NCBI GenBank assembly: GCA_963786365.1 | Contig: CAWAYR010000020.1 | Location: 7,623-71,622 of the forward strand | DNA length: 64,000 nt | From: an uncultured Acidobacteriota bacterium | GTDB lineage: Bacteria; Acidobacteriota; Vicinamibacteria; Vicinamibacterales; UBA2999 | Reading direction: 5' to 3' | Shown here: positions 11,787 to 59,689 of the stretch, piece after piece | Layout: each line of letters starts with the position of its first letter | Position numbering within the stretch: the first letter of the stretch is position 1 | Made by a program: the position numbers and the translations under genes | The notes under the pieces: generated by a model | What the model was told of the DNA's origin: nothing | Database searches by the model: none | Seen by the model: only the letters and a program-made list of their open reading frames with translations

Positions 11787-13777
11787 ATGAGCGAAAGCGG
11801 CCAACGGTCCACTCGGAAGAGCCCTCGATTCGCGGTCCCGAGCGCTGAGCGCCTGTTTCGAGACTGCCCTCGATCTGGTCTCGAGCGGCGTCGTACGTGG
11901 CCGACGGCGACGGCCGTATCATGCTCGCCAACCAGCAGCTCGAGCGGCAGTTCGGCTATTCCCAAGGCGAACTGGTCGGAAAGCGGGTCGAGGCGCTCGT
12001 CCCCGACGCGCTCCGCCTGGCCGAGCGGCAGCGGGGCGGGAGCGTCCACGCCAGCCCCGACCACATCCGCCAGCCACGTCGAGGACCAACTGTTCGGGCA
12101 GCGCCGGGATGGCTCCCTGTTCCCGGTGGACGTCACGCTGAGCCAGTTGCACACCGACGACGGATGCTTCGTGGTCGCATCGGTCGCGGAGGACTCGTCG
12201 ACGGGCCGCACACAGGAGCAGGCCTACGAGGAGACCGCTCTCCCGTCAGCGCGAGTTCGAGCGGCTGATCGCCGACATGTCGGCGCAGTTCATCAACGTC
12301 CCCGCGGACGCGGTGGACGGCGCCATCCGGAGCGCGCTGACGCAGATCGGCCATACCCTCGACCTCGATCGCGCGACCTTCTTCCGCGTCGCGGCGGATG
12401 GCGCGCTCCTCGATCCGGTGGGCTGGCACGGCGACGCCACGCCGCCGATTCCCGATCCGATACCGGCGACGCTCCTTTTCCCGTGGGCCCTCGAGACGCT
12501 GCGGGCTGGCGACATCGTGTGCTTCTCCAGCCTCGACGAGATTCCCAATCCGACCGATCGGGAAAGCTATCGCAGCCTCGGCATCCGCTCGGCGGTCACG
12601 GTGCCGCTGGCGGTCGCCGGCCGGACGGTCGGCGCCGTGGGATTCAACTCGTTTCGACGGGAGCGCGCCTGGTCGGCGGACGAGTTGCACATGTTCCGCG
12701 TGTTCGCCACGGCCTTCGGCAACGTGCTGGCCCGCCGCGAGGGCGACAAGGCCCTGCGCGCGGCCCTCGACGAGGTGGTGCGGCTGCGCGATCAGCTGCA
12801 GGCGGAGAACGTCTACCTGCGGGCCGAAGTCCGCGACCGGTCAGGCGTCGGCAAGGTCCTCGGGGAGAGCGTGGCGATCCGCCAGGCGCTCGAGCTGGTC
12901 GATCAGGTGTCGGCCACCGATTCGACAGTGCTGCTGGTCGGCGAGACCGGCACCGGCAAGGAGCTGTTCGCATCGCGGATCCACGATCTCAGCAATCGGC
13001 ACACACGGGCCATGGTGCGAGTGAACTGCGCCGCCATTCCGGAAACGCTGGTCGAAAGCGAGCTGTTCGGCCGGGAAAAGGGCGCGTTCACCGGCGCTCT
13101 GGCCCGGCAGATCGGGCGCTTCGAGCTGGCCAACCATTCCACGATTTTCCTGGACGAGATCGGCGACCTGCCGATGCAGGTCCAGGTCAAGCTGCTGCGG
13201 GTGCTGGAGGAACGGTCGATCGAACGGTTGGGCAGCTCGACGTCGATCAGGGTCGACACCCGCGTCATCGTCGCCACCCACCGCAACCTCGAACAGCGGG
13301 TCGCCGACGGGCAGCTTCCGGGAGGACCTCTACTATCGCCTCAACGTCTTCCCGATTCACGTGCCGCCGCTGCGCGAGCGGGTCGACGACATTCCGATCC
13401 TGGTCTGGCAGTTCGTCGAGCAGTTCTCGCGGGCGTTCGGCAAGCCGATCGAGACGATTCCCGCCGACAACCTGGCCGCCCTGAAGCGCTATTCATGGCC
13501 GGGCAACATCCGCGAGCTGCGCAACGTCGTCGAACGGGCGATGATCGTCGCCCAGAGCCCCCGGCTGGTCGTGCCGGTGCCGACCGGCGCGGCGACCCCC
13601 GCCACCCAGCGCAGCGAGGTGCTGGAGGACGTCGAGCGCGAGCACATCCGGCGGATGCTCGAGACCGCCGGCTGGCGCGTCCGCGGGTCGGGTGGCGCGG
13701 CCGAGCGGCTCGGCCTCAAGCCGAGCACGCTCGAAACGCGCATGATCAAGCTCGGCGTCAAGCGGCCGGCACGCTGA
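11787..13777 (+). CDS. Sigma-54-dependent transcriptional activator, PAS-GAF-AAA+-Fis HTH (at least 5 frameshifts)
   Basis: PAS region: ...FETALDLVSSGVV/ADGDGRIMLANQQLERQFGYSQGELVGKRVEALVP and QLFGQRRDGSLFPVDVTLSQL in different frames. ORF 12277..13845 supplies the GAF domain plus GESVAIRQALELVDQVSATDSTVLLVGETGTGKELFA...ESELFGREKGAFTGA. ORF 13361..13777 supplies ...YSWPGNIRELRNVVERA...AAERLGLKPSTLETRMIKLGV*. Confidence 0.9.
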
Positions 13778-24564: not shown

Positions 24565-24728
24565 GCTGCACGAGAGGCAAGGGTGATGCCATCTGGATTC
24601 CCAGTTTTATTGCTGAAGAGCCTGGCACGCCAATCGTGAAAGGTATCCGACCGCAAGACAAAAGGGAGGGTCATCCAGATTCATCCACCGCGAGACTCAC
24701 GGCGTTCGGCCATGGTAGAAGTGCAACC

Positions 24729-47592: not shown

Positions 47593-50141
47593 TCAGCGCA
47601 GGCCGTCGACCAGGTACAGCGCCGACAGCGCCCGGATGAACGTGTAGACGTAGGCTCGGGCGTCGGGCGTCATCACGGTGCGAAGAATCTCCATCGTGCC
47701 GGCCGGGTCGGGCGGCAGCAGCGCGCGCACCGGCTCCCGCCGCCCGGTCCGCAGATTCACCCGCGCGACGATCGGCCGGCAGGCTGCGCGCGCCCTGCAC
47801 GTACAACCACTCGCCGTCGGCACTGACGACGATCGGCACATCCCGGCCCTCGGCGCCGGCCAGCGGTCGTGGCGCGCCGCCGCCGATCGCGAAGACCGCC
47901 AGCCGCCGGTCGGTGCCACGCGTGACGAAGTGCTCGCCGTCCGGCAGGACGGCCAGGCGCCCGAACACCCCGTCGGCGGTCACCGCCTGCGGGTCGCCGC
48001 CGTCGATCGACTGCAGGTAGATGCGGTTCGGGCCGGTCCTTCTCCGCCGCCGCCACCAGGAACCGCCGGCCGTCGGGCAGGAACCGCGCCGCCGGAAAGT
48101 ACGACGCGAGTGGCCCGGCCGGCAGCGTTCGCGGCTGCCCCACGCCGGTCGGCAACAGCACCAGCCGATCGGCCGCCACCGGCGTCGACAGCACCCACTG
48201 CTTGTCGGGCGACAGCGCCAGCGGCACGCCGTCGCCAAGCCGCACCGCCGGCGCGCCGTCGAGCGTGCGCAGGTAGATCGAGCGGGCCGTGCCGCCGCCC
48301 TCCCACGACTCCTCGAGCACGGTCGTCGATGCCGTCGGCCGACAGATCCCAGGCCATCGATCCGTCGAGCCACGACAGATCGCGTTCGCGGGCAGCGCCG
48401 GCCGCCTGGGCCATCACGCCGGCGCCCCACGCGTCGCGCGACACCAGGGCGCGGCCGTCGGGCGCGACGTCGTGCAGCGTGAGGGTCGCCGGCGCGGCCA
48501 GCAGCTGGCGCTCCTGCCCGGCGCGGCTCACCGCGTGCAGCGCCTGCGCCGCCCCGGTGCGCGTGCCGGTGAACCAGATCTCCTGGCCATCGGGCGACCA
48601 GGCCAGGCCGAGCACGCTGTTCCAGCCGGTCGACAGCGTCGTCGCCCGGCCCTCGAGGTCGACCAGCGCCACCGAGCCGGCGGTGTCGCCCGAGACCGGA
48701 TGCACCAGGATGGCCACGGCGTCGCCGCTGGGCGAGACGCGGATATGGGTGATGTGGCCCGGGCTGGGATCGTAGAGCGTGCGTCCGATCGGATACTCGA
48801 GGACGTCCTTGCCGCTGCCGCTGCGGACGATCGCCAGTTCCGATCCGTCGGGCCGCCAGTCGGCGGCCAGCACGGCCTCGGCCAGCTGCCGCGGCGGGCC
48901 GCCGGCCAGCGCCGCGCGGGCCAGCGTGCCTTCGACGCGGCCGAATCCCTGCGGGTCCGAGCACCACGGCCATCTCGCCCTTGGCCGACATCGCGAAGAG
49001 GCCCATGCCGGTCATCTGCAGCGGCCGCGCTTCGGGGGCGTCGGGCCGGGTCGAGAACAGCTCCGTCGGCCGCCCTTCCCACGCCGCCGCGTAGACGATG
49101 GTCTGACCGTCGGCGGTGAAACGCGCGCCTTGCACGGCGCCGCGACGGAAGGTGAGCTGATGGAAGCGCGGCTGCGCCGGGCCCGGCTGGCGCAGGCCGA
49201 GCGCGAACCCGCCGGCGAGTGCCAGCGCCACGACGGCCACGCCCGCCGCCCACTTCCACGGCAGGCGCCGCGACGGCGCCGCGGCGATCGCCGGCGTCGA
49301 GACGCCGGAGATCGCTTCGAGCGCGAACCGCAGGTCGGCCGCGGTCTGGAACCGGTCGTCGCGCGACTTCTCCAGGCAGCGATCGACGATGCGCGCCAGC
49401 GACGAGCGACAGGCCCGGCACGACCAGCGTCAAGTCCGGCGGCTGCTCCTTCAGGATCGCCGACAGCGTTTCCGCCGGCGAGTTGCCCTGGAAGGCGCGC
49501 TGGCCGGCGAGCATCTCGTAGAGCACCGCGCCGAACGAGAAGATGTCGGCGCGATGGTCGGCCAGCTCGCCGCGCGCCTGCTCGGGCGACATGTAGCCGA
49601 CGGTGCCGAGCACCAGGCCGGCGGCCGTGGTCGACATGGCGCTGCGCGTCGTGCCCGCGGCTTCGCTGAGCTTGGCCAGGCCGAAGTCGAGAATCTTCAC
49701 CAGCCCGTCGGCGGTGACGAACAGGTTCTCGGGCTTCAGGTCGCGATGCACGATGCCGCGGCGGTGCGCCGCCGCCAGGCCGCGGGCGATCTGCTGGGCG
49801 TAGGTCAGCGCCTTGCGCAGCGGCAGCGGCCCGTCGGCCAGGGCCGCGCGCAGCGTCTCGCCGTCGAGCAGCTCGGTGACGACATAGGGCTGGCCCTCGG
49901 CGGTGCCGACGTCGTAGACGGCGACGATGTTGGAGTCGTTGAGCGCGGCGGTCGCGCGCGCCTCCTGCTCGAAGCGCTGCAGCCGATCGGGGTCGGTGGC
50001 GAAGGTCGCCGGCAGCACCTTGATGGCGACGTCGCGGCCGAGGCGCGGATCGCGGGCGCGATACACCTCGCCCATGCCGCCGGCGCCCAGCAGGCCGACG
50101 ATCTCGTAGGGCCCGAGCCGCGATCCCGGTGCGAGGTTCAT
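47593..50141 (-). CDS. Ser/Thr protein kinase with a TM segment and C-terminal TolB-like beta-propeller (at least 6 frameshifts)
   Basis: ORF 48528..50141 reads [31 protein letters not shown]...VAIKVL...[10 protein letters not shown]...ILDFGLAK...[10 protein letters not shown]. The [18 protein letters not shown] and PD40-like repeats are spread over 47537..49240, 47980..48873, 47757..48320 and 47593..47919 (...[10 protein letters not shown]..., ...WRPDGSELA..., ...[10 protein letters not shown]..., ...[10 protein letters not shown]..., ...[10 protein letters not shown]...). Confidence 0.9.
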
Positions 50142-50163
50142 GGGCCCGCGGCCGTGGTGTCGG

Positions 50164-51639
50164 CTAGCGGGTCAGCGACCGCTCGGCCTTGCCCGAGTAG
50201 TTGATGAACACCGTCTTCAGCTCGGTGAAGAAGTGCAGGCCTTCCTCGGCCATCTCGCGCTCGCCGACGCCGGTCGACTTGGTGCCGCCAAACGGCAGCT
50301 GCGCCTCGCCGCCGACGGTCGGCTCGTTGACGTGCACCATGCCGACCTCGACGTCCTCGACGAAGCGCATCACCGCGGTGATGTCCTGCGTGAAGATCGA
50401 GGTGGTCAGGCCCGTACTCGACGGCGTTGGCCTTGGCCAGCGCCTCTTCGAGGCTCGACGGCCACGGCCACCGACGAGCACCGGGCCGAAGATCTCTTCC
50501 TTGAAGATCCGCATGCCCGGGATCGACGTCGTCGAAGATCGTCGGGGCGATGAAGTAGCCCTGCGCCAGGTGCTCGGGCCGGCCGCCGCCGGTGAGCAGC
50601 CGTGCCCCCTCCTTCCGGCCGACGTCGATGTAGTCGAGCACGGTCTGCCACTGCGAGTCGGCGATCGACGGCCCCATCTCCATCGTCTCGTCGAGACCGG
50701 GGCCGACCTTGATCTTCTCGGCCGAGGCCACCAGCCGATCGACCAGCGCGCGCTTGACGTCGGGGTGGGCGATCACCCGCGAGGTCGCCGTGCAGCGCTG
50801 GCCGGTGGAGCCGAAGGCGCCGCCGTGAATCGCCGTCGCCGCCTTGTCGAGGTCGGCGTCGGGCATGACGATCACCGCGTTCTTGCCGCCCATCTCGCAG
50901 GTGACCTTGGCGCCGCGCCGCGCCGCCTTCACGTACAGCTCGCTGGCCGACCTGATTCGACCCGGTGAAGGAGATCGCCCGCAGTTCGGGCGCCGCGACC
51001 ATCGCCTCGCCGACGACCGAGCCCTTGCCGACCACCATGTTGAAGACGCCCGGCGGCATCCCGGCCTCTTCGTAGATCTCGGTGAGCAGCGTCGCCGTCG
51101 CCGGCACCAGCTCCGACGGCTTGAACACCACGCAGTTGCCGGCGACCAGCGCCGGCGCCGACTTCCACACCGGGATCGCCCACGGGAAGTTCCACGGCGC
51201 GATCAGCCCGACGACGCCGAGCGGCTGGCGCAGCGTGTAGGCGAAGGTGTCGCGGGCTTCGGACGGCAGCGTCTTGCCGTGCATGCGGAAGCCTTCGCCG
51301 GCGTAGTACTCGAGCAGCGAGATGCCCTTCATCACCTCGCCCTTGGCTTCCTTCAGGATCTTGCCTTCCTCGCGGGTCAGCACCCGGGCGATCTCGTCGG
51401 CGCGGCGGCGCGCGATCTCGGCGGCCCGCCACAGCACCCGGCCGCGCTCGGGCCCGGGGGTCTTCTTCCAGCCGCGCCACGCCGCGCTGGCCGCGTCGAC
51501 CGCCAGGCGCGACGTCGGCGGCGGTCGCCAGCGGGAACTCGGCGATCACGTCGGCGGTGTCGGCGGGATTGACGTTGCGGGTGACGTGGGTGGAGGCCGG
51601 GTGATACCAGGAGCCGTTGACGTAGGAGCCGGTGTGCAT
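50164..51639 (-). CDS. NAD(P)-dependent aldehyde dehydrogenase (at least 3 frameshifts)
   Basis: ATG 51639 gives [14 protein letters not shown].... The pieces are 50406..51437 (...[33 protein letters not shown]...FTGS), 50138..50932 (...[13 protein letters not shown]...[14 protein letters not shown]...) and 50164..50514 (...[10 protein letters not shown]...[15 protein letters not shown]...). Confidence 0.9.
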
Positions 51640-51706
51640 GCGGGCTAACACACTAGCATGCGGGCGAGGCCGACGGCGCGCCGGCCCACGCCGCCACGTC
51701 GTCGGG

Positions 51707-52252
51707 CTAGCCGCCGTATTGCCAGGAAGCGCGCCACTCGTAGAACCACGTCAGCCTCTGGCCCGACGGCAGTCGTGCCGTGACCCTCTCCTGCGCAAGG
51801 AGCGTGTGGGCGTCGTCCGCGAACGTCCCCTCGACCCGCGACTCGGTCTCGATGTCGACGCGTGTGCCGTTGCACAGCATCGCGCCGGGATGACGTCCTT
51901 CGGCCATGGTCAGGGTGTCACGGTCGATGACGCCGGTGTATTCGTAGCGATCGGTGGGATCCCGCTCGTCGGCGACGATGACGTTCACCTCCCCTCCGCC
52001 GAGCAGGGTCAGGGTCATGAGCCATGGGACGGTCCGTCCAGGAGTGAACGTCACTCCGCACGCGTCCCCGCCGGTGACGGCCGTCAGCGTCGTCGTGAGG
52101 CTCCATCGTTGTCCGCCGCTGGCGCGGCGGCGCCGGAGCGGGCGTAGCCGTCGGTGCGGTCGGGAACGGCGGAACGCTGCGTCGAGCGGGTGTCGCAGGC
52201 GGCCGACCACGACGCGAGGACCACGACCAACGCCCTTGCCGACGCCGTCCAT
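51707..52252 (-). CDS. Hypothetical lipoprotein, downstream copy of a tandem paralogue pair (two compensating frameshifts near the N-terminus)
   Basis: ATG 52252 is preceded by GAGGAG. The start reads MDGVGKG / LVVVLASWSAACDTRST... (lipobox). It is followed by QRWSLTTTLTAVTGGDACGVTF...YEYTGVIDRDTLTMAEG...MLCNGTRVDIETESRVEGTFADD...RLTWFYEWRASWQYGG* (ORF 51707..52888 frame). Confidence 0.55.
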   Translation of the reverse strand: MDGVGKGVGRGPRVVVGRLRHPLDAAFRRSRPHRRLRPLRRRRASGGQRWSLTTTLTAVTGGDACGVTFTPGRTVPWLMTLTLLGGGEVNVIVADERDPTDRYEYTGVIDRDTLTMAEGRHPGAMLCNGTRVDIETESRVEGTFADDAHTLLAQERVTARLPSGQRLTWFYEWRASWQYGG

Positions 52253-52308
52253 GATGGCTCCTCGAAGGACAGCTGGCCGTCCGCTACGGGCTGGATCGCG
52301 GCCGGCCG

Positions 52309-52888
52309 TCATTGCCGCGTCGCGTGCCACTTGGAATGCCACGTCAGCGTGGCTCCCGACGCCAGCCACGTGCTGTAGACCTCGTCGGCCTCCAGCGACC
52401 GTCCGCCATCGGCGAAGCGCCCGGTCACGCGCGCCTCGTCTCGGAACCCGACTCGCGTGTCGCCGCAGGTCATCCCGGCCACCGCCACCGACTCCCGTCG
52501 TTACCGTGAACGCTTCCCCGTCGGTCGTGCCGGAGTACGCAGGCCGATCGTTGAGGTTGCTGTGGTTGACCAGAGACAGCACCAGGCGCTCGCCGGCACG
52601 ATCGATCGTCAGCGTCCATTGCGTGGCGGCGCCGACCGGGGGGCTACCTAGACCAGGGCACGCCTCGCCACCGTGGGCGCCGAGGTAGGTCGTCGTCAGG
52701 CTCCAGCGCTCCGCCGTCGCAGCGGCAGCCGGCGCGGACGGGGCGGTCGGCGACACCGGCAGCCACAACCGTGGGGATAGGTCGCTGCAGCCGGTCGGGC
52801 CGAGCCCGAGACACAGTGCGGCGACGACCGCGGTGGACGGCAGAAGGCGCGTAGGCACGGGGGTAAGATAGCCATCGACTCGAGCCAA
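52309..52888 (-). CDS. Hypothetical lipoprotein, upstream copy of the tandem paralogue pair (one frameshift near 52490)
   Basis: The track ORF starts at TTG 52888 (an alternative ATG at 52875 is in another frame). It reads ...TAVVAALCLGLGPTGC...ERWSLTTTYLGAHGGEACPGLG...PAYSGTTDGEAFTVTTG. A manual +1 frame then gives MTCGDTRVGFRDEARVTGRFADGGRSLEADEVYSTWLASGATLTWHSKWHATRQ* (TGA at 52309-52311). Confidence 0.55.
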
Positions 52889-52937
52889 GTCTCAGGAGCC
52901 GTTCACGAAGAATTCAGGTTTTCGCCAAGAGCGCGTC

Positions 52938-53597
52938 GTGAGCATTCAATTCGGTCCCTACACCCTGGACCTCGAGACCCGCCAGCTCCTGCGGGAGGGT
53001 CGCGACGTGCACCTCACGCCGAAGGCCTTCGACCTGTTGGCCACCCTCGCACTGAGCCGTCCGTCGGCGCAGAGCAAGCAGGTCCTCCATGCACGGCTCT
53101 GGCCCGATACCTTCGTGCCGAGGCCAACCTGTCGAATCTCGTGGGAGAGATCGGGCGGCCCTCGACGACCGCGGCCGCGTCGCGACCTGGATTCGGACGG
53201 TCCACGGGTTCGGCTACGCCTTCTGCGGCGAGGCGGTCACCGTGCCGCGCACGCGCCGAGCGCGGCCGCTGCCCATCCCGGGTGCTGGCTCGCGTGGGGT
53301 CACCGTCGCTTTCCGCTGTCGCTCGGCGAACACGTCATCGGCCGGGATCCCGACGTCGATATCCCGCTCGACGAGTCCACGGTGTCGCGGCGGCACGCCC
53401 GGCTGCTCGTCACAATCGACGGCGCGGTGCTCGAGGACTTCGACAGCAAGAACGGCACGCTGCGCGGTGGCGAGCCGGTCACGGGGCCGGTCGCCCTCAG
53501 CGATGGCGACGCCCTCCACATCGGATCGTTGATCCTGACGTTCCACATGCGGCCACCGCTCGGGTCGACCGACACGCACGCCAGGACGCTGCGATAG
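52938..53597 (+). CDS. Winged-helix (OmpR/PhoB-type DNA-binding) + FHA domain regulator, EmbR-like but without BTAD (at least 3 frameshifts)
   Basis: GTG 52938 gives [60 protein letters not shown]. Other frames give ...[11 protein letters not shown]... and ...[25 protein letters not shown]. The FHA part reads ...[56 protein letters not shown]...[16 protein letters not shown]. Confidence 0.8.
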
Positions 53598-53610
53598 ATC
53601 GGTTCACCCC

Positions 53611-56241
53611 ATGCCACTCGCCAAGGGCACCCACGTCGGTCCGTACGAGATCGTCGGATGGCTCGGCGCCGGCGGGATGGGCGACGTCTACCGCGCCCGT
53701 GATTCGCGCCTCGGGCGAGACGTCGCGATCAAGGTGATCGCGGAGGCCTTCGCCGAGGACGCGAGCCGGGTGCAGCGCTTCGAGCTGGAGGCCCGGGCGG
53801 CCAGCCTGCTCAGTCACCCGAACATCCTCGCCGTCTACGACGTCGGCAGCGACGGCGGCGCGCCGTACATCGTCTCCGAACTGCTCGAAGGCGAGTCGCT
53901 CCGCACCCGGCTGCAGCTGGGGGCGCTGCCCTGGCGCAAGGCCGCCGACTACGCCCGCCAGATCGCCGACGGGCTGGCCGCGGCCCACGACAAGCACCTC
54001 GTCCACCGCGATGTGAAGCCCGACAACCTGTTCATCACGACCGACGGGCGGATCAAGATCCTCGACTTCGGCATCGTCAAGCTCACGCGCCCTGACGAGG
54101 CGCCGTCCCGGCCCTGTGGGGGGCGCGACGAAGACCAAGACCGGCGTCGTGCTCGGCACTGCCGGCTACATGTCGCCCCAGCAGGTCTGCGGCGACACCG
54201 TGGACGCCCGTTCCGACCTGTTCAGCCTCGGGGCGGTGCTCTACGAGATGCTCGCGGGCCGTCCGGCCTTCGCGCGCGAGACGTCGGCGGCGACCATGAC
54301 GGCGGTGCTGACCGAGGAGCCGCCGCCTACCGGCCGACGTGCCGCCGGCGCTCGCGCGCGTGGTCGTCGCGCTGCCTCGAGAAGTCGCCGCAGCGCGCGT
54401 TTCCAGACCGCGCGTGACCTGGTGTTCTGCCTGGAGGGCGTCGCCGCGACCGACGCCCGCGCGATGCCGGCGACCGGATCGGCCGCCGCGCGCCGCGCGC
54501 TGGCGCGCGGCCGCGGCAGACCGGCGTGGCCGTGCTCGGCCTGATGGCCGCCGCATGGCTGACCGGGCGAACCCCGCCCGCCGGCGCGAATCCGCTGGCC
54601 GACGCGCGGTTCACGCGCTTCACCGACTGGGAGGGCGCGGAAGAGGGCGCGGAGATCTCGCCCGATGGCGAGTTCGTCGTGTTTCTCTCCGACCGCAGCG
54701 GCCAGTTCGACATCTGGCAGAGCCGGGTCGGCACCGGGGTGTTCTCCAATCTCACCGCGGATCTGCCGCCGTTGACGTCCAGCGGGTTCATCGTCCGGAA
54801 GCTCGGCTTCTCGGCCGACGGCAAGGACCTCTGGTTCAATCCCGGCGATGGTCTGCCGCCGACGCTGATGCCCGCGACCGGGGGCGTGCCGCGGCCGTTC
54901 CTGGCGGCCGGCACCAACACGCCGGCGTGGTCGCCGGCGGGCAACGAGCCTCGTCTACATCGACAAGTCCAACGGCGACGACCCGATCTACGTCGCCGAT
55001 CGCTTCGGCGGCGACGCGCACGCGATCTTCGGGCCCGGGCCGCTGAAGAACATGAATCCGGTCTGGTCGCCCGACGGCCAATGGATCTACTTCGGCCGGG
55101 GCGCGGAACCGCAGGACGAGGCGGAGATGGACGTGTGGCGGATTCGCCCGACCGGCGGATCGCCGGAGCGCGTGACGACACAGCATCTCGCCATCAACTT
55201 CCTGGCGCCGCTCGACGCCCGCACGCTGTTGTACGTGGCGCGGGCGGAGGATCGGTCGGGGCCGTGGCTGTGGTCGCTCGACATCGGCAGCGGCGTGTCG
55301 ACCCGAGTGCCGTCGGGCGTCGATCAATACACGTCGGTCTCGACCAGCCGCGACGGGCGGCGGATCGTCGCCACGGTGGCCAATCCCAGCGCCAGCCTGT
55401 GGCGCGTGCCGCTGCTCGATCGAGTCGCCGAGGAACGCGACGCCGAACCCTACCCACTGCCGGCACCCAACCGGGATGGCGCTGGCCCCGCGCTTCGGCA
55501 AGACCGCGTTGTATTACCTCTCCGCCCGGGGAACGGCCGACGGCCTCTGGAAGGTCGAGAACGGCACGCCGTCACAGGTACGGCGGGGCGTCGACGGGGC
55601 CCTGTCCGAACCGCCGGCGGTCTCGCCGGACGGCCGACTCGCCGTCGTCATCCGGAAGGACGGGAAGCGGCATCTCTCGATCATGTCGGCGGACGGCACC
55701 AACGCGCGAACCGTGGCCCCGACGCTCGCCATCGAGGGCGCCGCCGGCCAGGGTGCCGTGGACTGGTCGCCCGACGGCACGCGGATCGTGGCCGGCGGCC
55801 GCGACGAGCAGGGCCCGGCGCTGTTCGTCATCACTGTCGAAACCGGCGTGCCAGCCCGCATCGTCGACGGCAAGTGGGTCAATCCGGTGTGGTCGCCACG
55901 CGGCGACCTCATCGTCTACGCCGGACGGTCGCTCATCGGCCAGGTCGAAGCTTCGCGGGGTGCGACCCGACGGCACTCCGGTCGACCTGCCGCGGTTGCT
56001 GGTTCGCCCGGGCGGCTATCGCTTCCTCCCCGACGGCGCCGGCCTGGTCTACTTGCCACGGATCACGTCCCCGGACTTCTGGGTGGTCGACTTCGAGACC
56101 AGGGCCGTGCGCCAGCTCGCGCGGCTCGCCAATCAGGGCGCGGTGCGGACCTTCGACATCACGCCCGACGGGACGCACATCGTGTTCGATCGCTCGCGGC
56201 AGAACTCGGACATCGTCCTCATCGATCTGCCGCCGCGCTGA
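53611..56241 (+). CDS. Ser/Thr protein kinase with a TM segment and TolB-like beta-propeller, paralogue of 47593..50141 (at least 7 frameshifts)
   Basis: ATG 53611 gives [31 protein letters not shown]...VAIKVI...[10 protein letters not shown]...ILDFGIVK. Colinear pieces follow in 54116..54544 ([10 protein letters not shown]...), 54526..56241 ([13 protein letters not shown]; ...[16 protein letters not shown]...), 55052..57064 (...[10 protein letters not shown]...) and 55476..56399 (...[10 protein letters not shown]...[10 protein letters not shown]...). It ends ...[20 protein letters not shown]. Confidence 0.9.
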
Positions 56242-56311
56242 AGAGCCCTGGCGAGGGCACCCGTCGGCGCCTGGACGCATCCAGGCATGGCCATTGCAGC
56301 GTCAGCCTGCG

Positions 56312-57470
56312 ATGCCCAACCTCAGTGTCCCGGTCGACTCACCTTTGTCCTCGTTGCTCCACAGGTTGGCGTCGTACGAACCCCGCGGCGGCGAGGTGAT
56401 CAGTCTCTACCTGAATCTCGGCCCCGACCAGCACGGCCGCGGCGCGCACGACGTCTTCCTGCGGCGGGCGTTCGCCGACCAGCTGAAGGCGGCGGCAGCC
56501 CGTCCGGACGCTGGCGACGGCCTGGCCCGGACCGTGGCCCGCATCGAGGCGTATCTCGCCGACGACGTCGATCGCGCGGCGAAAGCGGCGGCGATCTTCG
56601 CGACGGCCGACGGCGACGAGCCTGTTCGAGGCGGTGCCGCTCGAGGCGCCGATCGACGGGCACCAGCTGTTCCTCGGGCCGGTCCCGCACCTGTATCCGC
56701 TGGTGCGGCTGATCGACCAGTACCCGCGCTACGCGGCGCTGCTCCTCGACACCAACCGGGCCCGGATCATCGTCTTCGGCCTCGGCGCGGTCGAGAGCCG
56801 GGAGGAGGTCAGCGGCGAGAAGACGCGGCGGCATTCGATGGGCGGCTGGTCGCAGGCCCGCTACCAGCGCCGCACCGCGAACATCCACTTGCACCACCTC
56901 AAGGAAGTCGTCGAGATGCTGGAGCGCGTCGTTCGCGACGAGGCCATCGACCGCATCATCGTCGCCGGCGACGCCGCGGTCGTCGCGCGGCTGCACGAAC
57001 AGCTGCCGGCGCCTCTTGCCGCCAAGGTCGTCGACGCCGTGCGGCTCGACCGCCACGCCGGTGAGGACGAGATTGTCAGCGAAGCGATGCGCGCCCTGCG
57101 GCAGCGGGACGCCGAGGACGACAGTGCGCGGGTGGCCGACGTGGTCGGCGCCTGGCGGGCGGGTGGACTCGGTGTCGCCGGGCCGGAAGCCACGCTCCGC
57201 GCCCTGCAGCTGGGCCAGGTCGACGAACTGCTGATTGCCGCCACGCCGGCGATCCTCAAGGCGGTGCAGACGTTGCCCGACGACGCCGCGGCGGCGCCGT
57301 CGACGGCCGAGCGCTCCGCTCCCGACGGCGCCGAAGTGGCGCAGTTGCACCTGGCCGACGAACTCGTCACGCGGGCGACCCAGACCGGCGCCGCGGTGCG
57401 GATCATCGAAGACGCGGGGTTGCTCGAAGACTACGGCGGCGTCGCTGCTGCCCTGCGTTTTCGAATCTGA
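56312..57470 (+). CDS. Bacterial aeRF1-type (eRF1/Pelota/Vms1-like) release-factor-fold protein lacking GGQ (one frameshift near 56620)
   Basis: ATG 56312 gives MPNLSVPVDSPLSSLLHRLASYEPRGGEVISLYLNL...AAIFATADGDE (frame of ORF 55052..57064). ORF 56634..57470 then gives LFEAVPLEAPIDGHQLFLGPVPHLYPLVRLIDQYPRYAALLLDTNRARIIVF...EKTRRHSMGGWSQARYQRRTANH...RIIVAGD...GLGVAGPEATLRALQLGQVDELLI...AAVRIIED...GGVAAALRFRI*. The layout and the GGWSQxRYQRR loop match my recollection of baeRF/Vms1-like families. Confidence 0.7.
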
Positions 57471-57486
57471 TCGAAGGAGTCAGGTG

Positions 57487-57922
57487 ATGAGCCGTCAGAA
57501 CAAGGTCAACCCTGGGCAGTACACCAGCGCCGGCCGGCTGTCGGCCGACGATCTCGGACGCGAGCTGCGGCGCCAGAACGGCAAGACGGCGGCGGCCGGC
57601 GGGCCCGAGGCCGAGCGCCCGGCCTGGGAAACCAGGCAGCCGCCGATTCGGCTGGCCAAGAAGGCGCGGCCGCCGGCGGTGCCCGGACGCGCCAAGGTCG
57701 CCGCCGCCCGAGCGGTCATCGGCGTGACCCGCGTGACCGCCAGAGCCGCGAAGACAGTCACCGGCGCGGCGAAGAGGGTCGTGACGAAGGGCGCCGGGTC
57801 CGCGTCGGCAACAACGCGGGCGGCGACGGCGGCCCCGCCGCGCGCCGGCCAAGAAGACGACGACGTCCCTGACGAAGACGACGCGGGAGGCCCCGCCGGC
57901 CCCGGCGGCGAAGCGCCGCTGA
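57487..57922 (+). CDS. Small basic Ala/Lys/Arg/Thr-rich protein with a histone-H1-like tail (3' end needs one frame change)
   Basis: GAAGGAG precedes ATG 57487 by 7 nt. It reads MSRQNKVNPGQYTSAGRLSADDLGRELRRQNGKTAAAGG...RLAKKARPPAVPGRAKVAAARAVIG...AAKTVTGAAKRVVTKGAGS.... The tail in a shifted frame, APAKKTTTSLTKTTREAPPAPAAKRR*, stops at 57920-57922, just before the convergent gene. The unshifted frame would overlap that gene. Confidence 0.5.
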
Positions 57923-57926
57923 CGCC

Positions 57927-59556
57927 TCAGCGGACGCCGGGGCGAGGCTCGGTCAGTTCGGGCCGTCCGGGTCGGTCGGCCCGTGTGGTGAGCGTGGCCA
58001 ACGTGGCGAAGTGCGCGGCCGCCTTGCCCCGATCGCCAGCGTCGGCCGCGGCCCGGGCCGCGCCGTAGACGGCGCGGAAGCGATTGGGCTCCTTGGTGAG
58101 CGTGGCCTCGAACTCGGTCAGCGCCTCGGCCGGCCGCTTCAGCTGCAGCAGCATCTCGCCCAGGAGCTCGCGCGCCGGCTTGATCGGTCCGGGCGTGACC
58201 GCGGACTTCTCGGTCGCGTCCTCGCGCTCGGCCGCTTCGCGCATCAGCGTCAGGGCCTCGGCTGGAGCGGCCTTCGGCGAGCAGCACCCACGCCTCGGCC
58301 CCCGCCGCTGGATCTCCACCTGCTCGGTCCAGTACGCGTCCTTGGTGGCGGCCACGGCATCGCGCAGCGCCACCAGCCGTGTGACGTCCTGACGCGCTGC
58401 GGCGCGTTGCCGCTTCGCGCCGCGCCGATCGCGCGCGCGAAGTGGGTGACGGCGTCGGCCCAGCCGAACGGCGTCTGCGGCGGCGTCAGCGCGGCCGCCT
58501 CGGCCCAGGCCGCGCGTTCGAGGGCGTAGCGCGCGGGAATCGCCGCCACCGCGTAGTAGCCGGCGGAGGGCGGCGCGGCGTTGCCGGGGCCGGCGTTGGG
58601 GATCCGCACCGCCAGCGGCGCGACGAGCGGGAGCGTGCGGGCCGCCGCGGCGTCCTGCGCGGTCTGCAGGTAGGCGTACACCTGGTAGTCGAGGGCGTGC
58701 AGTTCCTCGGCGGCGCCGCCGGGATCCTTGCGGGCGGCCGCGGCCGAGATCAGATTGGTGTCGATCGAGTCCTGCCACAAGCCCACGCGCGTGAAGGTGT
58801 GCGAGGGCATGTGGAGGGCGTGCGGCGCGTCGGCGCGATCTTCGCGTAGCGGCGGGCGGCGTCGAGCCCGCGAGCCGCCAGCGGCGGCACGTCGAAGCTG
58901 TGGATGATGTAGTGCGTCAAGCCGGGATGCTCGGGCTGCCGGGCGAACTCGGCTTCGAGGATGGCCGCGGCCTTCAGCAGGTTGGCGTAGGTCTTGTCGG
59001 TGGGCAGCGCCGTCTGCCCGAGCGCCAGCGCGTAGAAGATGCGGGCCTCGGTGTCGTCGGGATAACGGGCGGCCAGCGCCTCCATCGCCTTCTCGTAGGC
59101 CACGGTCCGCGACCGCTGGTCCCGCGTGGCCGCGTCGCGGAACAGCGTGTCCACGGCGGCCAGATACGCCTTCTCGCGGTCGGTGCCGGCGCCACTGGCC
59201 GCGCCGGCGTCGCTGGCCGCCAGGCCGGCCGCCAACGCCTGTGGCGTCCGGAAGCCGCCGAAGGGATTGCCCCACCAGCTCATCGCGATGCCCCAGTGGG
59301 CCATCGCGCAGCGCGGGTCGCCCTTCAGCACCGTGGTGAACGACTCGACGGCGGCGGAAAACCAGAAGGAGTGCAGGAGCGCGATCCCGCGGTCGAACTC
59401 GGCCTGCACGGCCGGCGCGCACGAGGTGGCGAAATGCACCGTGCCCAGCCGGCCGGCCGGCGCGCCGTGGTCGTGCTGGCGGGCGACCGCCGGCTGGGCG
59501 ATCGCCGCCACGATGGCCATTGCCGCGGCCGCGGTGCCCAACCTTCGTCGGCACAT
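57927..59556 (-). CDS. Secreted TPR-like conserved hypothetical protein (at least 3 frameshifts)
   Basis: ATG 59556 gives MCRRRLGTAAAAMAIVAAIAQPAVA...VHFATSCAPAVQAEFDRGIALLHSFWFSAAVESFTTVLKGDPRCAMAHWGIAMSWWGNPF... (tail of ORF 58750..60690). It is followed by ...HALHMPSHTFTRVGLWQDSI... (58250..59605) and ...ELLGEMLLQLKRPAEALTEFEATLTKEPNRFRAVYGAARAA... (57927..58778). Confidence 0.7.
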
Positions 59557-59689
59557 GGTGGACGCTCCTGGGCCGGATGATACCCGCCGAACCACCGGAC
59601 GGCAACGCTCAGGGGACGATCGCGAACGGCGTCGTGACCCCGCCAATTGCTTGCGATACCCGGCCGGGTCTCGTACGATCCGCGCCGCC

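Follow-up and report, generated by a model that had tools for sequence, protein, structure and literature searches.

The main finding of this work is the identification of a conserved bicistronic unit, formed by a bacterial eRF1-like gene and the small gene that follows it and equipped with a sigma-54-type motif at a fixed distance from its first start codon, in a stretch of 64,000 nucleotides (nt) from an uncultured Acidobacteriota bacterium (contig CAWAYR010000020.1, hereafter the window). As originally predicted, four plus-strand genes follow one another here: a winged helix-turn-helix (wHTH)-FHA regulator of about 218 residues (52938-53597), a Hanks Ser/Thr kinase with a propeller of about 873 residues (53611-56241), a member of baeRF_family10 of about 386 residues (baeRF10; 56312-57470) and a small basic protein of about 145 residues (57487-57922). 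Once the reading frames are corrected, the gaps between the genes measure 13, 70 and 16 nt. The original prediction joined all four into one phospho-regulated unit, a claim that did not withstand the counts from our neighbourhood surveys, the promoter found in the second gap or the loci that lack the regulator and kinase genes at the same site. Our findings suggest that two modules adjoin at this locus: module A (51707-56241), with two lipoprotein genes of the opposite strand, the regulator and the kinase, and module B (56284-57922), with the promoter motif, baeRF10 and the small partner gene. Judging from gene order across related genomes, the modules are very probably independent, and the whole reading that we favour and hold to be reasonably probable is that they merely adjoin, with module B working as the stress-induced ribosome rescue pair proposed below.

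The small gene was predicted to encode a genuine basic protein with a strong ribosome-binding site of its own, and both points were borne out. A Shine-Dalgarno sequence, GAAGGAG, lies on the plus strand at 57473-57479, 7 nt before the ATG, and the protein proves to be a conserved partner of the eRF1-like gene. It carries a conserved N-terminal motif of about 30 residues (57487-57576), MSxxNKVNPxxYxxxGR…, with the consensus MS[KR]xNKVN[PK]xxY[TK]xxGRL[TS]PD[DE]xARExxKQ, and M1, S2, V7, N8, Y12, G16, R17 and E26 are invariant in 34 partner sequences; a second subtype reads …NPDHYKxAGRERQGE…. The tail behind the motif is basic, of low complexity and very variable in length, being rich in K, R, A, T and P in the window, and full-length products range from about 47 to 216 residues. 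A word-indexed search yielded 1959 homologues, or 488 representatives at 50% identity, none of which is named, and in almost every one of the 150 best representatives the motif begins with residue 1. Comparison of the partner with Pfam, NCBIfam and the PDB sequences returned no family, and no PDB chain below E 1, while the predicted structure of the partner alone consists of one short helix in an otherwise disordered chain, at low confidence and with no fold. The representative search also returned two in-frame fusions of baeRF10 and the partner in which the baeRF10 stop codon is missing, P0482 (501 residues) and P0423 (359 residues), both of which keep the partner's own methionine after a spacer of 7-9 residues. 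These fusions were not used as evidence of an interaction, since they possibly result from lost stop codons or sequencing errors.

The partner was located with a profile of its first 30 residues in a survey centred on baeRF10, which covered 82 loci with flanks of up to 8-10 kb: 80 loci from GTDB species, L002, and L001, an intact reference contig with 85% identity to the window in its baeRF protein. In 53 of these loci the partner gene follows baeRF10 directly and on the same strand, and its motif was never found elsewhere in their flanks. In the subfamily to which the window belongs (at least 47% identity), 42 of the 48 loci have the partner, and a reverse survey starting from the partner found baeRF10 directly 5' in all six loci.

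The gap between the kinase and baeRF10 contains the sigma-54-type promoter GGCATGGCCATTGC (GG-N10-GC; 56284-56297, plus strand), whose -12 C is placed 14 nt before the baeRF10 ATG; the window reads aGGCATGGCCATTGCa at 56283-56298. Promoters of this class follow the consensus TGGCAC-N5-TTGCW, with GG at -24 and GC at -12. The core GGCCATTGCA is invariant in an alignment of the window with L001, L173 and L175, although the genes upstream differ. When 89 non-redundant loci were searched for GG-N9-TGC followed by an ATG 11-15 nt further on, this geometry was found in 63, as against about 0.03 expected per region, and it is present in 46 of the 48 subfamily loci. The positions that the pattern leaves free agree with GGCAC-N5-TTGCA: over the 63 loci they hold C (61%), A (90%), C or T (97%) and T (98%) before the TGC, and A or G (91%) after it. 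Motif and partner occur together in 49 loci, are both missing in 22, and only one of them is present in 16.

In 54 of 64 motif matches the ATG follows the -12 C at 12-15 nt, 13 nt being the commonest value. Transcription from sigma-54 promoters starts about 12 nt past the -12 C. Therefore, a leader of only about 1-3 nt is expected, and the baeRF10 mRNA is predicted to be nearly leaderless, which fits the lack of a Shine-Dalgarno sequence at baeRF10 as against the strong one at the partner gene. RNA structure in this gap gave a z-score of -2.0, which is not convincing. A gene for a sigma-54 activator of the AAA+ type is present in the window itself (about 12769-13711, plus strand), which suggests that the sigma-54 system is in use in this organism, and one clade encodes an NtrC-type activator at 2-3 kb from baeRF10. 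Elsewhere the window contains another good motif of sigma-54 type, TGGCATCACCCTTGC (24577-24590, minus strand). Scans of the region 52400-58300 for other signals were uninformative: no sigma-70 promoter was found, and the search for intrinsic terminators gave three sites against 1.3 expected, none of them in the gaps between the genes.

Gene neighbourhoods of the two modules

The original prediction tied the eRF1-like factor to a kinase/FHA pair, but homologues of baeRF10 almost never adjoin such genes. In the 82 loci of the baeRF10-centred survey the wHTH-FHA regulator occurs once, in L001, a kinase domain is found anywhere in the flanks of eight loci, and a kinase lies directly 5' of baeRF10 in two (L001 and L032). 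A second survey, centred on the regulator, covered 80 metagenome loci. Where 600 nt or more of downstream sequence is available (54 loci), a kinase lies directly 3' of the regulator in 28, and neither baeRF10 nor the small protein was found in any of the 80, including the 16 with at least 4.2 kb downstream. In L092, for instance, a lipoprotein gene faces the regulator and the kinase-propeller, which are followed by a TonB receptor, and there is no baeRF10.

In L001 the gene order is Aldedh (minus strand), two small lipoproteins (minus strand), the regulator (218 residues), the kinase (873 residues), baeRF_family10 (391 residues), a protein of 143 residues and a convergent TPR gene. Three loci with a baeRF10 62-71% identical to ours (L175, L176 and L177) share the outer gene order of the window, with an RND pump, a kinase (minus strand), Aldedh (minus strand), baeRF10 with its partner, and Amidohydro_3. 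In these three, Aldedh faces baeRF10 across only about 70-80 nt, and the lipoproteins, the regulator and the kinase of module A are absent. The block of about 4.6 kb that holds the lipoprotein, regulator and kinase genes is therefore not part of an ancestral unit but a lineage-specific insertion, or else a deletion elsewhere. The TPR gene is present in the window and in L001 and absent in L177, where Amidohydro_3 directly follows the partner gene, and it is a second lineage-specific insertion at this locus.

Other neighbours of baeRF10 recur in a lineage-specific manner. Sua5/TsaC, which acts in tRNA t6A synthesis and so represents a second neighbour related to translation, lies directly 5' of baeRF10 on the same strand in a large clade (L083-L088 and at least 17 of the loci L003-L082), and DUF3810 is found convergent downstream. 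The six-frame clustering of neighbours used here is noisy in DNA of 70% G+C because of antisense open reading frames (ORFs), and it still recovered Sua5/TsaC.

The eRF1-like factor and its catalytic-type loop

Even the 278-residue fragment that can be read from the uncorrected window is assigned to PF18854 (baeRF_family10), with 103.8 bits against a gathering threshold of 27.1 (E 1.3e-29), and it gives weaker Pfam matches to acVLRF1 (E 1.1e-14), baeRF_family2, eRF1_2 and eRF1_3. We retrieved 3047 homologues, mostly of 383-393 residues, some of which bear the NCBI name 'Vms1/Ankzf1 family peptidyl-tRNA hydrolase [Vicinamibacterales]'; relatives occur in at least 567 GTDB species genomes, mostly of Acidobacteriota, and also in metagenome-assembled genomes that bear the labels Luteitalea, Chloracidobacterium, Candidatus Solibacter and Bryobacterales. 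A profile of 24 homologues matched both the archaeal factor aRF1 (4af1, E 1.8e-12) and Balon/MSMEG_1130 (8v9j, E 5.4e-12) over the full length of these proteins. The AlphaFold model shows three domains and a disordered loop at residues 165-199, with a predicted local distance difference score (pLDDT) of 69 and a predicted template modelling score (pTM) of 0.47. In Foldseek, this model retrieved the Balon proteins of Mycobacterium smegmatis, M. tuberculosis and P. urativorans at the top, with E values from 1.6e-15 (8v9j) to 2.5e-12, and then aRF1, eRF1 and Pelota/Dom34. The profile and Foldseek matches thus uphold the eRF1/Pelota-like organisation that had been read from the sequence.

The factor had also been described as lacking GGQ, which is literally true and at the same time misleading, since an invariant GGxSQ loop is present. 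The GGWSQ codons are located at 56841-56855 (plus strand; KTRRHSMGGWSQARYQRR). In an alignment of 24 homologues with 54-89% identity to the reference, the G, G, S and Q are invariant and the W is found in 22, and the surrounding block, KTRRxSMGGWSQARYQRR, with its invariant Gln, is the best conserved of the family. In the profile alignment with aRF1 4af1, the GG of this loop falls on the GGQ and the ASNIKS segment of 4af1 faces a non-conserved helix, so that the NIKS motif is absent from our protein.

The original prediction regarded bacterial aeRF1-type proteins as almost uncharacterised, a view outdated after the Balon work: these proteins were predicted in 2019 (PMC6514570), and a hibernation role for Balon, which is widespread, was shown in 2024 (PMC10901736). 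In the passages of the earlier study that deal with these families, the loop is described as poorly conserved in most baeRF families, family 10 is singled out for keeping the loop Gln, as probably or possibly catalytic, and the GGxSQ form is described for aVLRF1 and acVLRF1 (Burroughs and Aravind, 2019, PMC6514570). The window protein is a member of this family, with the three-domain aeRF1 architecture and the loop Gln. The same main-text passages note an association with HPF only for other baeRF families, and mention neither the small partner nor the sigma-54 and near-leaderless promoter (PMC6514570).

The factor was compared with several known systems. Balon (P. urativorans Balon, Msmeg1130 and Rv2629) is the best structural match, and it shares the three-domain aeRF1-type architecture, the absence of NIKS and the link to stress. 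However, Balon lacks both NIKS and a GGQ-like motif and its catalytic centre, the peptidyl transferase centre, is held inert (PMC10901736), whereas the window protein has the invariant GGWSQ; and the neighbour of Balon is RaiA, whereas here it is a small protein of a novel family. The three NCBIfam families of Balon type match over the full length but score far below their cut-offs (NF052287, NF052288 and NF052289; 85.6 against 320, 61.1 against 480 and 33.1 against 330), and the factor is therefore a relative of Balon and not a member of its family. With aRF1 and eRF1 it shares the fold, the alignment of the loop GG to GGQ and the full-length profile match to 4af1, but it has no NIKS, carries GGxSQ in place of GGQ, reaches only 55.2 against the cut-off of 234.7 for TIGR03676, and is encoded by an accessory gene of a bacterium beside the normal RF1 and RF2. 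The Vms1/ANKZF1-like proteins aVLRF1 and acVLRF1 share the GGxSQ form of the loop. However, acVLRF1 has lost the N-terminal codon-recognition domain and the Pelota-type C-terminal domain, both of which the window protein retains, and its NCBIfam model NF041024 scores 37.9 against a cut-off of 125, the Pfam match to PF18859 being also weaker than that to family 10.

Module A, its leader and the frameshifts of the assembly

The domain assignments made for the first two genes held in Pfam. The regulator, intact as an orthologue in L001, matches only FHA (E 1.2e-16) and Trans_reg_C, and its similarity to response regulators is confined to their C-terminal DNA-binding part, as expected of an OmpR-type winged helix without a receiver. 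The second gene encodes a Hanks kinase with one hydrophobic, transmembrane-type segment between the kinase domain (Pkinase, E 1.9e-32) and a TolB-like propeller of periplasmic type (PD40); its L001 orthologue, with a PD40/Tricorn-type propeller, matches the PknB-type kinase with E 5.5e-85 and propeller_TolB with E 2.6e-26. At E ≤ 1e-10 the regulator has 4408 homologues, a huge family, and the regulator and the kinase form a very common signalling pair of Acidobacteriota, with a logic like that of EmbR and PknH. With the EmbR-PknH pairs it shares an OmpR-type wHTH without receiver, joined to FHA and encoded beside a Hanks kinase. It differs in having no BTAD match in Pfam, in the order wHTH then FHA within about 218 residues, in the PD40 propeller of the kinase and in the size of the family, which exceeds 4400 homologues in Acidobacteriota. 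PADLOC defence models gave no match for baeRF10, the partner or the regulator and only generic kinase-domain matches for the kinase, and for this reason a defence-system reading was dropped.

Facing the regulator gene on the minus strand are two lipoprotein genes which, as predicted, are paralogues (35-37% identity). Paralogue A (51707-52251, ends approximate) was placed by tblastn; it is frameshifted, being 77% identical to a protein of 181 residues in L001 and split over two frames. Paralogue B (52309-52858) is divergent from the regulator gene and probably starts with the GTG at 52858 (MPTRLL…LGPTGC, with a lipobox) and not with the TTG at 52888. A homologue with 38% identity is likewise divergent from the regulator in L092. 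Beyond the lipoprotein genes, on the same strand, lies Aldedh (50138-51651), and next to it another kinase gene was observed (about 48528-50141 and beyond, minus strand), whose product also ends in a propeller-type region and shares 55% identity with the L001 kinase orthologue in the kinase domain. On the other side, the TPR gene (57927-59605, minus strand) is convergent with the partner gene and ends a few nt past it. No match was obtained when the window was scanned for tRNAs and Rfam families.

Between paralogue B and the regulator there is a conserved leader or operator (52864-52929, plus strand), which was noted in the window and 5' of the regulator gene in L089-L172, and which recurs 5' of most of 86 regulator loci and in most of 36 aligned sequences. 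It opens with a -10-like TAAGAT at 52864-52869 (TAAGAT or TAACAT across the leaders), followed at 52893-52929 by AGTCTCAGGGGACTTCCAGGGACTTCGCAGGTTTTTTCCAAG, a series of three to four direct CAGG-N7 repeats with a period of 11 nt. What the original prediction had noted as an AT-richer patch (52903-52925) corresponds to repeats 2-3 of this element. The alignment of the leaders gave no consensus RNA structure (0 pairs), and the reading as an RNA element was consequently rejected in favour of a DNA operator. A search of the window for the CAGG-N7 repeat gave 10 matches where 9.1 were expected; of these, only that 5' of the regulator is a good one, and none lies near baeRF10. Direct repeats with an 11-nt period are the geometry of OmpR/PhoB-type operators. 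Autoregulation is therefore the likely meaning of the element, and the repeats probably constitute the putative operator of the regulator itself.

Coordinates in this region depend on frame corrections. The window has about 70% G+C, and its raw ORF map at 52.9-57.9 kb is fragmented. The L001 proteins were therefore placed on it by tblastn with three-frame translation, and this revealed about 10 frame changes within 5 kb: three in the regulator (near 53118, 53150 and 53245-53283), five in the kinase, one in baeRF10 (about 56620) and one in the small gene (about 57845). The same comparison with L001 showed further frame changes on either side, in Aldedh, the lipoprotein genes and the TPR gene. 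Frameshifts from indels appear every 400-700 bp or so in each gene examined, for example also at 54115, 54947, 55440 and 55945. So many frame changes in 5 kb could be taken to mean that the cluster is decayed, with genuine frameshifts and pseudogenes. This is highly improbable, given that the flanking genes are hit equally, that relatives with 91-95% identity, from other long contigs, have their breaks elsewhere and are intact at the break sites of the window, that L001 is wholly intact and that amino-acid conservation runs on across each frame change. Because close relatives break at different sites, the indels of the window are best explained as assembly errors and not as decay. Raw ORF calls from this assembly are unreliable, and polishing is needed.

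Proposed function and its alternatives

On the basis of these comparisons we tentatively propose a stop-codon-independent rescue or release mechanism for module B. Under stress, an enhancer-binding protein would switch the operon on, and the near-leaderless mRNA would permit expression of the factor when normal initiation is compromised. With no stop codon being read, the factor would enter the A site of 70S ribosomes that have stalled or are idle, and the small partner would act as an adaptor that supplies what the lost NIKS did, by recognising the state of the ribosome; through its N-terminal motif it may dock to the factor or to the decoding centre, and through its basic tail it may bind rRNA or the empty mRNA channel. 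The GGxSQ loop would then release the peptidyl-tRNA or nascent chain, an ArfA/RF2-like logic on an archaeal-type factor. In the same scheme, module A would have been inserted just 5' of the module B promoter in a narrow lineage. With ArfA-RF2, BrfA-RF2 and ArfT-RF1/2 the proposed pair shares only this logic, in which a small basic adaptor recruits a release factor without a stop codon. The ArfA, BrfA and ArfT adaptors have about 40-70 residues and a disordered tail, but there is no sequence relationship to the partner, the release factor here is of archaeal type, and the conserved part of ArfA is its C-terminal tail whereas that of the window partner is its N-terminus. The stronger claim, that baeRF10 and its partner are a two-component release system, with the first catalytically active aeRF1-type factor on bacterial ribosomes and a new adaptor family, is doubtful.

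Several observations weigh against the reading that we favour. The closest solved relatives of the factor, the Balon proteins, are non-catalytic hibernation factors, and the structural model is of moderate quality, with the catalytic loop modelled at low confidence. In L173 and L174 (3220-10499; 69% identity) the baeRF10-partner pair stands among BON, YtxH, DUF892/YciF-like and Transgly_assoc genes, by a two-component system, and the general-stress or dormancy cluster of L173 would fit hibernation as well as rescue. Hibernation is accordingly a possible, if rather unlikely, function of the pair: the factor would be a Balon-like, non-catalytic protein that plugs the A site of idle or translating ribosomes while the partner fills the mRNA/tRNA path, as RaiA/HPF does beside Balon or CCDC124 beside eRF1 on dormant 80S ribosomes. 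The absence of NIKS, the Balon structures at the head of the structural matches and the full-length, though sub-threshold, matches to the three Balon-type families speak for it, as do the company of stress genes in L173 and L174 and the predicted stress-type sigma-54 control, which would suit such a role; Balon genes themselves typically lie in stress operons beside RaiA (PMC10901736). However, proteins of Balon type have no GGQ-like motif, whereas the loop with its invariant Gln is the best conserved block of our family, and the Balon-type scores stay far below the cut-offs. Moreover, inspection of the 25 commonest neighbour clusters, made by eye and not by a Pfam scan, revealed no HPF- or RaiA-like gene.

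The short gap before baeRF10, which is without a terminator in the window and in L001, may also allow co-transcription with the kinase and thus a locally acquired regulatory link, and a kinase lies directly 5' of baeRF10 in L032 and within about 3-4 kb 5' on the same strand in L019 and L044. These points lend something to the model of the original prediction, a single four-gene operon in which an envelope signal would activate the kinase, the regulator would read the phosphorylated target through its FHA domain, and a rescue or arrest factor and its partner would thereby be controlled, either transcriptionally or directly. So do the co-directional arrangement with its small gaps free of terminators and the recurrence of the same order in L001 (85% identity). 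Nevertheless, we consider this model improbable. Apart from the window and L001, the regulator and baeRF10 keep apart in both surveys (81 of the 82 baeRF10 loci lack the regulator, and all 80 regulator loci lack baeRF10), and L175, L176 and L177 have no module A at this site. The kinases upstream in L032 and L044 are of other types, that of L032 being a short soluble kinase and that of L044 being paired with an ECF sigma factor and separated from baeRF10 by a HAD gene. The original prediction had also named separate promoters between the genes as evidence against it, and the conserved sigma-54-type promoter sits precisely between the kinase and baeRF10; for this reason a four-gene operon is disfavoured. 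The putative operator repeats of the regulator were not found near baeRF10, and a wHTH-FHA protein is not a sigma-54 activator. Read-through from the kinase into baeRF10 is possible, and nothing points to a need for it. Taken together, the four-gene unit appears largely refuted as a conserved system, and the reading as two adjoining modules is the one retained here.

The module A proteins and the baeRF10 family belong to kinds already known. What appear to be new, relative to the searchable literature, are the obligate-looking partner, the sigma-54 and near-leaderless architecture of family 10 and the operator-like repeats of the wHTH-FHA regulator; the latter, a by-product of this work, provide a candidate operator for a very large regulator family. 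Family 10 is the branch of the aeRF1-type proteins that kept a catalytic-type loop, and it now gains a defined partner family, a defined promoter type and a predicted unusual mRNA, while a tempting but unsupported tie to Ser/Thr-kinase signalling is removed. An orphan annotation thus becomes a testable two-protein system, in a large family and with cultured Acidobacteriota available that are related to the metagenome-assembled genomes carrying it. If the factor is active, the pair would represent a new route of ribosome rescue and a new class of adaptor; if it is inactive, the pair would represent a second architecture for ribosome hibernation.

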